From NCBI GenBank assembly GCA_963667725.2, contig CAXXHO010000003.1, positions 1,536,001 to 1,600,000 of the forward strand: a stretch of 64,000 nt of DNA, read 5' to 3'. The stretch is from Treponemataceae bacterium. Lineage in GTDB: Bacteria > Spirochaetota > Spirochaetia > Treponematales > Rectinemataceae. Of this stretch, positions 30,001 to 33,000 are shown piece after piece. Position numbers: made by a program. Position 1 is the first letter of the stretch; each line of letters begins with the position of its first letter.

Positions 30001-33000
30001 AGGGAAAAAACCCCGCCCTCGCGCCGGCGCTGTTCTGCGCCCATTTCGATGTCGTGCCCGTTCCCGACTCAACTGGCTGGAAGCACGATCCCTTCGCGGG
30101 GGACATTATTGAAGGCGAACTCTGGGGCCGCGGCACCCAGGATATCAAGGTGCTCATGGCTTCCATTCTGGAGGCCGCCGAAAAGCTCCTGGAGCGCGGC
30201 TTCGAGCCTGAACGGACAATCTATTTCGCCTTTGGCGGCGACGAGGAGGTAGGCGGCCATAGGGGCGCCGCGGCCATCGCCGACCTTTTTGCCGCCAGGG
30301 GGATCAAGGCTTCTTTTCTCGTGGACGAAGGAGGCCCCATCTCGGTAGGCATGCTTTCCTTTGCCGCGCGCCCCCTTGCCCTCATCGGCGTGGCGGAGAA
30401 AGGCTATGCCGATCTTTGCGTGCGCGTGAAAGGTTCGGGAGGCCATGCCTCCATGCCGCCGCGGCACACAGCCCCCGGCGATCTCGCCAGGGCAATCGCC
30501 GCGATCGAGGCGCGGCCCTTCCCAACGAAACTCACGCGCACGGTGCGCTCATTTTTCTCTCGCCTCGCGCCTGAATCGAAACTGCCTTACCGTTTCCTCT
30601 TCAGCCAGCTCTGGCTTACTGCCCCGGTTCTCATGAGGGCATTCGCATCCGGACCGACCACGAACGCCCTGATCCGCACGACAGTGGCCTGCACCATGCT
30701 CAAGGGCAGCCCGAAGGAGAATGTCCTCGCGGACAATGCGGAGGCTACGCTGAACGTGCGCATTCTTCCCGGCGAAACTTCAGAAGAAGTCATAGCGAAG
30801 CTGAACCGCATTGTGGCGCCCTTTGGCGCTACGGTATCCCCCAAATATAAGGATCATGTCATCGAGCCTTCCAGCGAATCCGGAACGGACCATGAGGGAT
30901 GGAAGGCCATCGAGTCGGCATTGAGGACATCCCATCCCCAGGCGGGTTGCCTGCCCTTCCTCTTCAGCGCCGCCACCGATACGAAGCATTATAAGAATGT
31001 CGTCGGCGCGATCTACAGATTCACGCCCCTGATCCAGTCTCAGGAAGATCTTAAGGGGGTTCATGGCGACAACGAGCGGGTAAAGCTGAGCGATCTCGAT
31101 CGTTGCGCGCTTTTCTACGGCACGATGATGGCATCTCTCTAGACTGAAAATCGCATCGAATAAAGGAAGCGGGCATTCCGAAAACGGGCATTTCGGAAGC
31201 GCGCTTCCGATTTCTTATTTTTTCTTGCCTCGGATCATCTCCTGTATTAAGTTTTTGTAATGAAAATCAAATTTTTATCGATTATGATCGCTTTCGCGAT
31301 GATCGGTTCCGCTGTTTACGCGGTGGATATAAACGGTTCGATAGCCCAGGGCGAGTACGCGAGGGAAACCTCGTTCGACAACGGAAATTTCAGACTCCAC
31401 TGGAAAATAGAGGGTGACGCGATATTCATGGCCATCGACGCGAAGGCAGCCGGATGGGTCTCTATAGGATTCGAGCCGACCAATATCATGGCGAATGCCG
31501 ATATGGTTTTCGGCATCGTGGACAAGTCGGGCATGTTGCAGCCGATAGATGCCTGGTCCACCGGTATGTTCGGACCGCATCCGCCTGACGTGAATCAGGG
31601 GGGCAAGGACAGCATTCTCGCCTCCGCGGCCGGAAGAACCCAGGATCGAGTCGTATTCGAATTCTCCCGAAAATTGAATACCGGCGACAAATTGGACAAG
31701 GTCATCCCCGCCAAAGGCTCTTTCAAGGTGATCTGGGCCTACAGCTCCAGTCTGCAGTTCACCGCGAAACACAGCAAGGCCGGCAAGGCCACGCTCGAGA
31801 TGGACGGCTCCGAATGAGCCTCCTCCCCTTTCACCTGGGGCTCATGGCGACGGCAACCGCCGCCATGCTGGCAGCCATCATCGTCGCGAGGTTTTTCAGA
31901 AAGAAGAAGTGGTGGCTCAGGGCACATAAATCGCTCAACCTTGCCGCCGTCGGTCTGGCATTCTTGGGGTTTGTTCTCGCGTTTATTATGGTGCAGTCCT
32001 CGGGCGGCCCGCACTTCAGGGTAAGCCACGCGATTTTCGGCGGAGTCGCACTCCTCTTCATGATCGCGATGCCGAGTCTGGGATTGATGATATTCAAATC
32101 GAAAGACAAGAAAAAAACAGCCCGGCTCAGAATCGCGCATCGCTGGCTAGGAAGGTTGGCCGCCATCCTCTGCTGCTTTGCCGTCGTCGCCGGGCTAGTC
32201 CTTATCGGTGTCCTTTAAGGCTTTTTTTTCACGTTGCCCGATTTTGATCCCAGATAAGCCGCCCGCACGGCGGGGTCGCTCGCAATTTCCCTGGACGGGC
32301 CCGATTTCACGATGCGTCCCTGCTCGAGCACATAGGCCCTATCGGCCACCGTGAGCGCCTTGAAGGCGTTCTGTTCCACGAGCAGTATTGTCTTTCCCAT
32401 GTCGCGGATCTTGACTATGATTTCGAATACTGTCTGGACAAGCAGGGGCGCCAGCCCGAGCGAGGGTTCATCCATGAGCACGAGCTCGCCGTTGGTCATG
32501 AGCGCCCTGCCCATCGCGAGCATCTGCTGCTCCCCGCCCGACAGGGTACCGGCGACCTGATTTTCCCTCTCCTTGAGGCGAGGGAAAATGGAAAAAACCT
32601 TGTCCATATCCTCGCGGACGACCTTCTTGTCATTCCGCAGATAGGCGCCCAGAAGAAGATTGTCGGTGACGGTCAGATTGGCGAAAATCAGCCTTCCCTC
32701 CGGGACATGACAGATGCCCGACTTGACGACCAGATCGGGCCGTCTTGCCAGCTTGGCGTCTTTATAGAGAACCTCTCCCTGCGAAGGTTTGAGGAATCCA
32801 GAAATGGTGTTGAGGAGGGTGGATTTCCCGGCGCCGTTCGCGCCTATGATCGTGACGATCTCGCCCTGCTTTACTTCGAGTGATACACCTTTCAACGCCC
32901 TGATGCCACCGTAGGATACGTGGAGGTCGATAACTTTCAGCATGGTCAGGCCTCCTCTGTGGTGCCGAGATAGGCTTCGATCACCTTGGGGTTGTTCGCG

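Follow-up and report, generated by a model that had tools for sequence, protein, structure and literature searches.

A split DOMON-cytochrome b561 gene pair in a spirochaete, a putative prokaryotic counterpart of the eukaryotic CYBDOM proteins

Cytochromes b561 and CYBDOM proteins have been studied as ascorbate-driven iron reductases of eukaryotes; spirochaetes and several archaeal orders are usually described as organisms without cytochromes. As set out in excerpts of two papers (PMC10784552, PMC10784544), the CYBDOM proteins of plants (Arabidopsis HYP1 and CRR) and animals (SDR2/FRRS1) hold a DOMON domain with a conserved Met/His pair outside the cytoplasm and join it to a b561 domain whose four histidines serve two haems, giving a three-haem outward path. 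Ascorbate-dependent ferric reductase activity has been shown for the plant CYBDOM proteins.

Here we describe a gene pair from a window of 64,000 nucleotides, the whole stretch of DNA that was analysed, in the genome of an anaerobic spirochaete of the Rectinemataceae. The initial annotation had read this pair as a split bacterial version of the CYBDOM architecture, and every element of that reading that could be checked (domains, histidine positions, natural fusions and missing haem genes) held. Our literature searches, one of which was set too loosely to inform, found no paper on prokaryotic DOMON-b561 proteins; Iyer, Anantharaman and Aravind reportedly surveyed DOMON architectures in 2007, and their survey may already list bacterial combinations of the two domains.

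The locus and its signals

Two open reading frames on the plus strand, in different frames, were found where overlapping DOMON and b561 genes had been proposed (Table 1). Their ATGA stop/start overlap is taken as a sign of translational coupling between them, and an NTGA junction recurs in 17 of 18 split-type loci, where N is A, G or T and a start codon results every time. An M20 peptidase gene (29784-31142; Pfam) precedes the pair, and a terminator-like hairpin follows it, in the interval between the peptidase gene and the pair. The promoter-like motif before the DOMON gene would yield a near-leaderless mRNA. Of 16 sequences compared, namely the window and 15 split-type loci, 10 carry a motif of the form TTGNCN-N13-15-[TC]AT[AT][AT][ACT] that stops 9-10 nt short of the start codon. 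Inspection by eye of these 16 upstream regions revealed no shared regulator palindrome.

Table 1. Features of the DOMON-b561 locus, in window positions.
Feature	Position	Strand	Basis or remark
Terminator-like hairpin and T run	31193..31210	+	Consensus scan
Promoter-like motif TTGCCT-N14-TATTAA	31225..31250	+	Ends 9 nt 5' of the DOMON start codon
DOMON gene	31260..31817	+	ORF, 185 aa; Pfam DOMON
Sec signal-peptide-like stretch, residues 1-21	31260-31322	+	Ends AVYA; without lipobox Cys
M77 of DOMON protein	31488-31490	+	Candidate axial ligand of one haem b, with H171
H171 of DOMON protein	31770-31772	+	Candidate axial ligand of one haem b, with M77
ATGA stop/start overlap of DOMON and b561 genes	31814..31817	+	Sequence
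Cytochrome b561 core gene	31814..32218	+	ORF, 134 aa; Pfam PF03188
H7 of b561 protein	31832-31834	+	Periplasmic side (predicted topology)
H38 of b561 protein	31925-31927	+	Cytoplasmic side (predicted topology)
H67 of b561 protein	32012-32014	+	Periplasmic loop (predicted topology)
H72 of b561 protein	32027-32029	+	Periplasmic side (predicted topology)
H109 of b561 protein	32138-32140	+	Cytoplasmic side (predicted topology)

No RNA data set is on record as containing the locus. Sequencing run X6, labelled metatranscriptomic cDNA (its origin from RNA is a guess made by the search tool), contained a 630-nt contig (31261-31890) that spans the gene junction. We regard it as a hint of expression only, as contigs reveal neither transcription nor a transcript start.

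The surroundings of the pair were surveyed by clustering crude gene calls from 48 loci and by running Pfam on 30 neighbours drawn from them. Around the pair no conserved third gene, for a donor or an acceptor, emerged from these loci. The clustering returned synteny among close relatives only (an M20 peptidase and a Liv-type ABC transporter, the neighbours in the split spirochaete clade) together with scattered redox genes that are few and lineage-specific and are considered below.

The predicted subunits and their relatives

The 134-aa membrane protein matches the Cytochrom_B561 profile (PF03188) with 45.1 bits against a cut-off of 23, its residues 8-128 aligning with profile positions 8-130 of 137, and the family scores 40 bits in a six-frame search of the genome; the earlier figure was 41 bits. 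The DOMON partner scores 81.6 bits (earlier 81). The Pfam scores agree with the earlier view that a b561 of the PF03188 type, not of the CybB type, stands beside the DOMON protein. Three other members of the clan stay below their cut-offs: DUF4079 (PF13301; 25.3 bits against a cut-off of 31.4), the Ferric_reduct family of MsrQ/YedZ (PF01794; 15 against 28) and the CybB-type Ni_hydr_CYTB (PF01292; 11.6 against 30.1).

Five histidines (H7, H38, H67, H72 and H109) are again invariant in a 20-sequence alignment. In a broader sample, consisting of the window protein and the best 150 representatives at 50% identity, each of the 138 complete rows has H7, H38, H72 and H109; H67 occurs in 125. A profile built from 20 homologues pairs these four, histidine to histidine, with H50, H86, H120 and H159 of human Dcytb (5zle_A; PDB hit E 0.45), the haem ligands of that protein. 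The CRR paper, in the excerpts considered here, couples the first CYB561 histidine with the third and the second with the fourth (PMC10784552 / PMC10784544).

The AlphaFold model of the membrane protein came out as before (pLDDT 90.7; helices 4-27, 34-62, 71-95 and 99-130), and each of the four histidines stands at the beginning of its own helix. Classical eukaryotic members have six transmembrane helices; this protein has four in its 134 residues. The whole model superposes on TM2-5 of the Arabidopsis structures 4o6y/4o7g (Z 14.4, rmsd 2.3), covering only chain residues 45-182 of 4o6y, and on TM2-5 of 5zle (Z 13.6, rmsd 2.1). The Foldseek match to 4o7g/4o6y was also recovered (TMq 0.71, rmsd 3.1-3.4, 21-22% identity, E 0.2). 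Designed four-helix bundles score as highly as b561 structures (Z 14.6-14.7), so that the Foldseek and VIA matches cannot identify a b561 on their own, and the fold Z-score was dropped as a test of family membership; the assignment rests on the sequence profile and the histidine pattern. The Lys/Arg-rich loops at residues 26-39 and 95-110 would face the cytoplasm, given the positive-inside rule and the fused relatives in which a secreted DOMON domain directly precedes helix 1. The orientation predicted in this way, from sequence only, is that of CYBDOM, with DOMON outside and the first helix of the core crossing the membrane inwards.

The Pfam DOMON match covers residues 40-161 of the 185-aa secreted protein. 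All of 49 aligned sequences have M77 and H171, as do 49 of 49 DOMON rows among the 50%-identity representatives. The two residues lie 94 positions apart; the corresponding Met-His spacing is 91 residues in CRR and 84 in HYP1, according to the excerpts (PMC10784552, PMC10784544). Their conservation and spacing make the two residues candidate equivalents of the haem ligands of CDH and CYBDOM. An early DOMON model, folded without an alignment, was poor (pLDDT 44) and is superseded by an AF2 model that used the 49-row alignment (pLDDT 91.1, with residues 1-18 below 50). Its best Foldseek match is the DOMON domain of DBH (4zel, E 1e-7), presumably not a haem protein. The haem-b DOMON cytochromes 6jt6, 1d7c, 4qi3 and 2ivf_C, from pyranose and cellobiose dehydrogenases and the gamma subunit of ethylbenzene dehydrogenase, come next (E 2e-5 to 2.6e-4), followed by weaker matches to the CBM9 modules 1i82 (E 1.3e-3) and 7nwn (E 2.3e-3). 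A DOMON profile run against PDB sequences gave no match at E<=1.

The initial annotation had recognised that PF03188 occurs elsewhere among spirochaetes, with counts slightly different from ours. Of 68 other Rectinemataceae genomes, 27 carry it at E<=0.001 and 23 exceed the cut-off (previously 21 of 68); of 400 other Spirochaetota genomes, 26 carry it and 24 exceed the cut-off (previously 23). The 14 control genomes again gave none.

DOMON and b561 do not form a single chain in the window, where they occupy two ORFs in different frames. One-frame fusions, previously noted for some other spirochaetes, do exist there, and they are not restricted to them: they also occur in archaea. Examples are P0087, P0098 and P0096; fusions make up 47 of 75 representatives of the long b561 relatives and 9 of the 48 genome loci. 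The fused form is the common prokaryotic form and not a rarity of some spirochaetes. A word-index search returned no longer b561 relatives, which reflects a limit of that search, as fused forms were found by other means. The split form, by comparison, makes up a single spirochaete clade (support 99/95) that looks derived; this single clade and its shared NTGA junction indicate that the split probably arose by lineage-specific gene fission from a fused ancestor. Other ectodomains fused to the b561 core are desulfoferrodoxin-like, COX2/cupredoxin and cytochrome P460 domains, a variety of redox modules that fits a generic electron-supply role of the core.

A proposed three-haem wire and its alternatives

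We consider it rather probable that the pair constitutes a two-subunit wire with three haems b across the cytoplasmic membrane, a prokaryotic and split counterpart of eukaryotic CYBDOM. In the 134-aa subunit, H38 and H109 would hold one haem close to the cytoplasm, and H7 and H72 a second one close to the periplasm. The secreted subunit of 185 aa would be exported via its predicted Sec signal peptide and carry the third haem b between M77 and H171. Fission would leave this DOMON cytochrome unattached in the periplasm. Electrons from a soluble cytoplasmic reductant would enter at the strongly basic inner face, pass over the two membrane haems to the DOMON haem and leave to a periplasmic or external one-electron acceptor, for which ferric or cupric chelates and reactive oxygen species are candidates. 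The donor is probably reduced flavin or an acidic redox protein (rubredoxin, ferredoxin or flavodoxin), because no quinone pathway was found and ascorbate is unlikely in a bacterium. For this scheme we infer haem binding, topology, direction of flow, donor, acceptor and the scavenging of haem. A complex prediction for the window b561, mature DOMON and three haems gave 0.01 and 0.20, where the mark is 0.32; the tool returned no verdict, and the scores count neither for nor against the scheme.

It is unlikely, in our judgement, that such a wire serves oxidative stress in place of metals, delivering periplasmic electrons for superoxide, peroxide or oxidised envelope parts upon exposure to oxygen. 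This reading draws on archaeal relatives whose b561 core bears the desulfoferrodoxin-like ectodomain: PF01880 reaches 23.1 bits against a cut-off of 22.2 in one member and E<=1 in three of seven members of the group, and the Atlas label 'Desulfoferrodoxin domain-containing protein' has a score of 0.90. A rubredoxin-FMN oxidoreductase gene lies 3' of a b561 gene of this kind in L041 and L043, and a fused gene is followed by AhpC in L018 and by nitroreductase in L022 and L029. All of these hints, however, come from distant relatives and none from the split spirochaete clade, and no stress-regulator site was seen when the upstream regions were inspected by eye. The desulfoferrodoxin match itself is marginal. 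Its motif, CN(L/Q/A)(F/Y/G)G, has no histidine where the C-N-x-H motif of superoxide reductases has a metal ligand, and a profile of the SOR-like domain gave chance-level matches only against PDB sequences.

The physiology of the host bears on the source of the haem. The initial annotation held that this bacterium cannot make haem, and indeed HemB, HemC and ferrochelatase were all missing from its 97%-complete genome; cytochrome bd, MenA and MqnA were likewise not found there. Since no tetrapyrrole synthesis was found, the pair's haem would have to be scavenged, and since there was no sign of a quinone pathway in the form of MenA or MqnA, quinol is an unlikely electron donor. Haem auxotrophy is not general to b561 carriers: HemB is present in 13 of the 26 b561-positive Spirochaetota and, in equal proportion, in the whole sample (200 of 401). 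Within the 68 Rectinemataceae, 27 genomes have b561 and 11 have HemB, and the two sets do not overlap. Mutual exclusion of b561 and HemB was rejected as a functional link, as the family-level pattern fails across the phylum.

The missing haem genes, the absence of a haem-needing cytochrome bd and the pattern within the family would also suit a pair devoted to haem capture, in which DOMON binds environmental haem and passes it to a histidine-rich membrane protein for storage or import. We regard this as improbable: HemB is as frequent in b561 carriers as in the phylum sample as a whole, the four histidines occupy, in 138 of 138 relatives, the exact positions of the fixed bis-histidine redox haems of b561, and the fusion partners of the relatives are redox domains, not transport domains.

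We give very little probability to a cytochrome that works inwards or with quinones, in the manner of E. coli CybB or MsrQ, with the membrane subunit trading electrons with a quinone pool. The dihaem domains of CybB (5oc0, Z 11.2), STEAP and NOX do appear among the structural matches, and they share a broad class of dihaem helical bundles, but the protein scores far under the Ni_hydr_CYTB and Ferric_reduct cut-offs, and neither MenA nor MqnA was found in the genome. Equally improbable is a non-redox pair in which DOMON binds a sugar or other ligand as CBM9 does and the membrane protein is a haem-free anchor or partner: CBM9 modules belong to the DOMON superfamily and the top fold match, 4zel, is presumably haem-free, but the Met/His pair of DOMON and the four histidines at the b561 ligand positions are invariant, and haem-b DOMON cytochromes outrank CBM9 among the fold matches.

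The three-haem wire may be extended to a wider proposal, which is possible and, in our view, doubtful. The b561 core would be an old module through which anaerobic bacteria and archaea pass electrons outwards, fed by a cytoplasmic donor other than ascorbate or quinol, fitted with interchangeable ectodomains (DOMON haem, desulfoferrodoxin-like, cupredoxin or P460) and the prokaryotic source of the eukaryotic b561 and CYBDOM proteins. Fission in this spirochaete clade would have released a b-type carrier that diffuses freely in the periplasm, comparable to soluble cytochrome c but with haem b, and that works with scavenged haem in a cell with no other respiratory component.

Implications and comparison with known systems

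If the reading as an electron wire is true, a wire of b-type haems can operate in spirochaetes and several archaeal orders, perhaps with haem taken up from outside, and this would matter for how strict anaerobes deal with iron, copper or oxygen at the cell surface. The minimal prokaryotic form would offer a small and tractable system (134 and 185 aa), whose host is a fermenter that shows no synthesis of haem or quinones. Experiments on it could ask what reduces a b561 where there is no ascorbate, what the DOMON haem delivers its electrons to, and where the eukaryotic family came from.

CybB (PF01292) and MsrQ/YedZ (PF01794) resemble the membrane subunit, as predicted here, in being small helical proteins with two haems that link the cytoplasmic membrane with redox reactions in the periplasm. 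They belong to other families, however, and the window protein falls far short of their cut-offs. CybB, the superoxide oxidase of E. coli, and MsrQ/YedZ are linked to quinones, whereas no marker of a quinone pathway was found in the window host.

With the haem-b DOMON cytochromes (cellobiose and pyranose dehydrogenase, the gamma subunit of ethylbenzene dehydrogenase and plant AIR12) the secreted subunit shares the beta-sandwich fold, as modelled, and a conserved Met/His pair. The known members work for flavin or molybdenum enzymes or carry a GPI anchor, whereas the gene of the window DOMON accompanies that of a membrane b561, and the protein is probably free in the periplasm. The eukaryotic cytochromes b561 (Arabidopsis CYB561B, 4o6y/4o7g; human Dcytb, 5zle) and the membrane subunit have in common the PF03188 profile, the fit to TM2-5 and the four histidines. 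They differ in that the eukaryotic proteins have six helices, of which the window protein lacks the first and the last, and identity between them is only 18-22%.

The remaining comparison is with CYBDOM. Both of its Pfam families match the window pair, and a Met and a His predicted to be able to ligate haem b are present in the DOMON domain. CYBDOM is one polypeptide, whereas the window pair is two, and the window host shows no clear sign of ascorbate metabolism or of the synthesis of haem or quinones. The b561 part of CRR is described in the excerpts as having five helices (PMC10784552 / PMC10784544), compared with four in the window protein. Taken together, the pair is most likely a three-haem wire that takes electrons to the outside, a bacterial relative, minimal and split, of the CYBDOM iron reductases of plants and animals.

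A DOMON gene and a minimal cytochrome b561 gene

The two genes of the pair overlap by four bases, ATGA, and DOMON and Cytochrom_B561 each occur once in the genome (4.22 Mb, 8 contigs, 97% complete). The upstream protein scores 81.6 bits against Pfam DOMON over residues 40-161, and the downstream protein matches Cytochrom_B561 (PF03188) at 45.1 bits with a cut-off of 23. For the latter protein, DUF4079, Ferric_reduct and the prokaryotic Ni_hydr_CYTB/CybB all stayed under their own Pfam cut-offs; no NCBIfam model matched either protein. Convergent genes downstream of the pair encode ABC-transporter ATPases and permeases, judging from their translations, and such clusters adjoin the pair again in close relatives.

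Features of the window and of homologous loci from the species-genome scan (L numbers)
Feature	Location	Strand	Remarks
DOMON gene	window 31260-31817	+	ORF, 185 aa
b561 gene	window 31814-32218	+	ORF, 134 aa
M20/M28-type peptidase gene	window 29784-31142		upstream of the pair; Pfam
Terminator-like hairpin	window 31193-31210		3' of the peptidase gene
Region upstream of DOMON gene, with promoter-like motif	window 31225-31259		
Desulfoferrodoxin-like ectodomain	L019:4101-4391, L032:4692-4979, L041:4680-4970, L043:227-517, L048:580-870, L050:4623-4913, L018:3855-4145		archaeal relatives; L021 too
Rubredoxin-FMN gene	L043:980-2452, L041:5045-6634		Methanomicrobiales
Disrupted-looking split pair	L026:4565-5366		Spirochaetaceae
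Convergent gene just downstream of b561	L039:5400-6503, L038:1726-2538	-	Caldiserica contigs; b561 without upstream DOMON

In an alignment of 20 b561 homologues (50-90% identity), H7, H38, H67, H72 and H109 are invariant and the motifs KWWL, GGPH.RV.H and HR..GR are conserved. The AlphaFold2 model built on this alignment (pLDDT 90.7) has four helices, each starting directly past one histidine (H7, H38, H72, H109). The sole PDB-sequence match of the alignment profile was human Dcytb (5zle_A, E 0.45), where these four residues pair with H50, H86, H120 and H159, which we take to be the Dcytb haem ligands. The Foldseek matches to Arabidopsis b561 described in the initial annotation were recovered again (TMq 0.71, E 0.2), and VIA-align placed all 134 residues on TM2-5 of 4o6y/4o7g (Z 14.4) and aligned the model with 5zle at Z 13.6. 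Because designed four-helix bundles reach Z 14.6-14.7, the fold alone does not single out b561; the family assignment is therefore based on the profile score and the histidine pattern.

Lys and Arg are clustered in loops 1 and 3, and in relatives with both domains in one open frame the secreted DOMON lies immediately N-terminal to helix 1. From these two features we infer an outward-facing N-terminus, which would put the H7/H72 pair towards the periplasm and the H38/H109 pair towards the cytoplasm, as in eukaryotic b561 TM2-5. According to the paper on CRR, an Arabidopsis protein, the haem histidines of CYB561 domains pair first with third and second with fourth.

Residues 1-21 of the DOMON protein resemble a Sec signal peptide without a lipobox cysteine and are its only poorly modelled part. 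While the earlier model, folded without an alignment, had been weak (pLDDT 44), a 49-row alignment raised pLDDT to 91.1. Foldseek matched this model to the dopamine beta-hydroxylase DOMON (E 1e-7), to the haem-b cytochrome domains of pyranose dehydrogenase, cellobiose dehydrogenase and ethylbenzene dehydrogenase gamma (E 2e-5 to 2.6e-4), and to CBM9 modules (E 1.3e-3 to 3.9e-3). M77 and H171 are invariant in the 49 rows.

Family breadth and architectures

A profile search of the b561 family over 1.84 billion representatives returned 1059 proteins at E<=0.001, 346 of them at E<=1e-10. Among the matches listed (149 beside the window's own cluster), 74 have at most 150 aa and 75 at least 160 aa; Pfam finds DOMON with Cytochrom_B561 in 47 of these 75 long relatives. 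When the window protein and the 150 best-listed representatives are taken together, the four b561 histidines are kept in all 138 rows covering their positions, H67 in 125 of 138, and M77 with H171 in all 49 DOMON rows. The gene pair is real and well conserved. Individual long proteins vary: P0124 has the reversed order b561-DOMON, three (P0127, P0158, P0211) carry two DOMONs each, P0169 continues from DOMON-b561 into a C-terminal COX2/cupredoxin domain, and P0246 has an N-terminal cytochrome P460 before DOMON and b561.

The species-genome scan found 48 b561 loci, in Spirochaetota, Thermoplasmatota, Methanomicrobiales-type methanogens, Theionarchaea, Caldiserica/Cryosericota, Syntrophaceae and Thermodesulfobacteriota. 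By HMM and Pfam, DOMON is a separate gene directly upstream in 18, shares a single open frame with b561 in 9 and is replaced by a desulfoferrodoxin-like ectodomain in 7; 12 have no same-strand adjoining DOMON (2 of these with a convergent DOMON gene), and 2 are interrupted by a contig end. In L039, Pfam assigns two domains to the convergent gene, DOMON and a copper amine oxidase N-terminal domain. Two labels look wrong, as though the contigs were mis-binned: L031 (Candidatus Deferrimicrobium) is nearly identical and fully syntenic to L033 of Candidatus Cryosericum hinesii, and proteins P0002 and P0025 (Candidatus Hydrogenedentales, 4495-nt contig) share 88% and 86% identity with the window's spirochaete proteins.

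The archaeal ectodomain, about 95 aa, sits N-terminal to the same four-helix core and follows the pattern AHPPS...xH..D..(T/S)H(F/Y)(I/V)...SQ...CN.(F/Y/G)GS, with H3, H25, H33, C81 and N82 invariant in seven sequences. Pfam Desulfoferrodox reaches 23.1 bits in one member (cut-off 22.2) and E<=1 in three of the seven, and the nearest named Atlas cluster is 'Desulfoferrodoxin domain-containing protein' (0.90). The ectodomain may form a site that resembles superoxide reductase but has a changed metal centre, and that is fed from the membrane. In L041 and L043, a gene joining a rubredoxin domain to an FMN domain of the glutamate-synthase type comes immediately 3' of the b561 gene; its product is a candidate cytoplasmic electron donor.

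Expression signals and the split arrangement

In 10 of 16 sequences upstream of DOMON (the window's and those of 15 loci), the motif TTGNCN-N13-15-[TC]AT[AT][AT][ACT] ends 9-10 nt 5' of the start codon, and no Shine-Dalgarno-like stretch was seen between motif and start codon. This fixed spacing suggests that the pair has its own promoter and a near-leaderless mRNA in these spirochaetes. No RNA run has been recorded for the window. A contig from one run labelled metatranscriptomic spans the DOMON/b561 junction, which is no proof of transcription.

In an unrooted maximum-likelihood tree of 46 b561 domains (L037, L042 and L049 excluded as too short), all 18 split rows, from 17 loci and the window, fall on one side of a single branch (support 99/95, 100% of bootstrap trees), and fused rows are scattered across archaea and other spirochaetes. 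An NTGA junction stands at the window's position in 17 of the 18 split loci, and N is A, G or T in every one of them, which preserves a start codon. In the exception, L026, the DOMON match runs to position 148 of its profile and meets a TAA stop, the b561 match begins at position 12 of its own profile, and a start codon is missing where the junction usually lies; this reflects either a pseudogene or a fault in the assembly. We read the split form as one fission within the linker of a fused ancestor; as the tree is unrooted, this direction is our inference.

Haem supply and a predicted electron route

In the host genome, searches for ALAD/HemB, porphobilinogen deaminase/HemC, ferrochelatase, cytochrome bd subunit I, MqnA and MenA all found nothing; each search did respond in control genomes. 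Haem would therefore need scavenging, and a quinol is unlikely as the electron donor. Among 68 other genomes of the family, b561 occurs in 27 (10 genera, including the window's own) and HemB in 11 (4 genera), with no overlap. This exclusion is probably phylogenetic, because it is absent at phylum level (HemB in 13 of 26 b561-positive genomes vs 200 of 401 overall in a Spirochaetota sample), and we rejected it as evidence that the pair functions in haem scavenging.

The initial annotation's reading of the pair as a DOMON-b561 electron conduit is upheld as far as computation reaches, best supported as a three-haem-b electron wire. A soluble cytoplasmic one-electron donor would reduce the inner haem (H38/H109) at the basic inner face of b561; electrons would then pass to the outer haem (H7/H72), the DOMON haem (M77/H171) and a periplasmic or external acceptor. 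That the b561 core is repeatedly fused to further redox ectodomains supports a generic role in supplying electrons. Across the 48 neighbourhoods, no gene for a donor or an acceptor was found conserved near the pair. By analogy with CYBDOM proteins, in which eukaryotes join DOMON and b561, ferric or cupric chelates are candidate acceptors; the desulfoferrodoxin-like relatives, together with a few redox genes among the neighbours, hint at reactive oxygen species.

The DOMON-b561 literature found concerns plant and animal CYBDOM only, and a survey of DOMON domains that Iyer and colleagues published in 2007 may list prokaryotic combinations. Fused forms are widespread in prokaryotes and can already be recognised with Pfam, so we consider the window pair, a split, minimal form of DOMON-b561 with a predicted function, of moderate rather than high interest. 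Compared by spacing, its DOMON Met and His lie 94 residues apart, vs 91 in CRR (M89/H180) and 84 in HYP1 (M90/H174), as given in the Arabidopsis CYBDOM reports (PMC10784552, PMC10784544).
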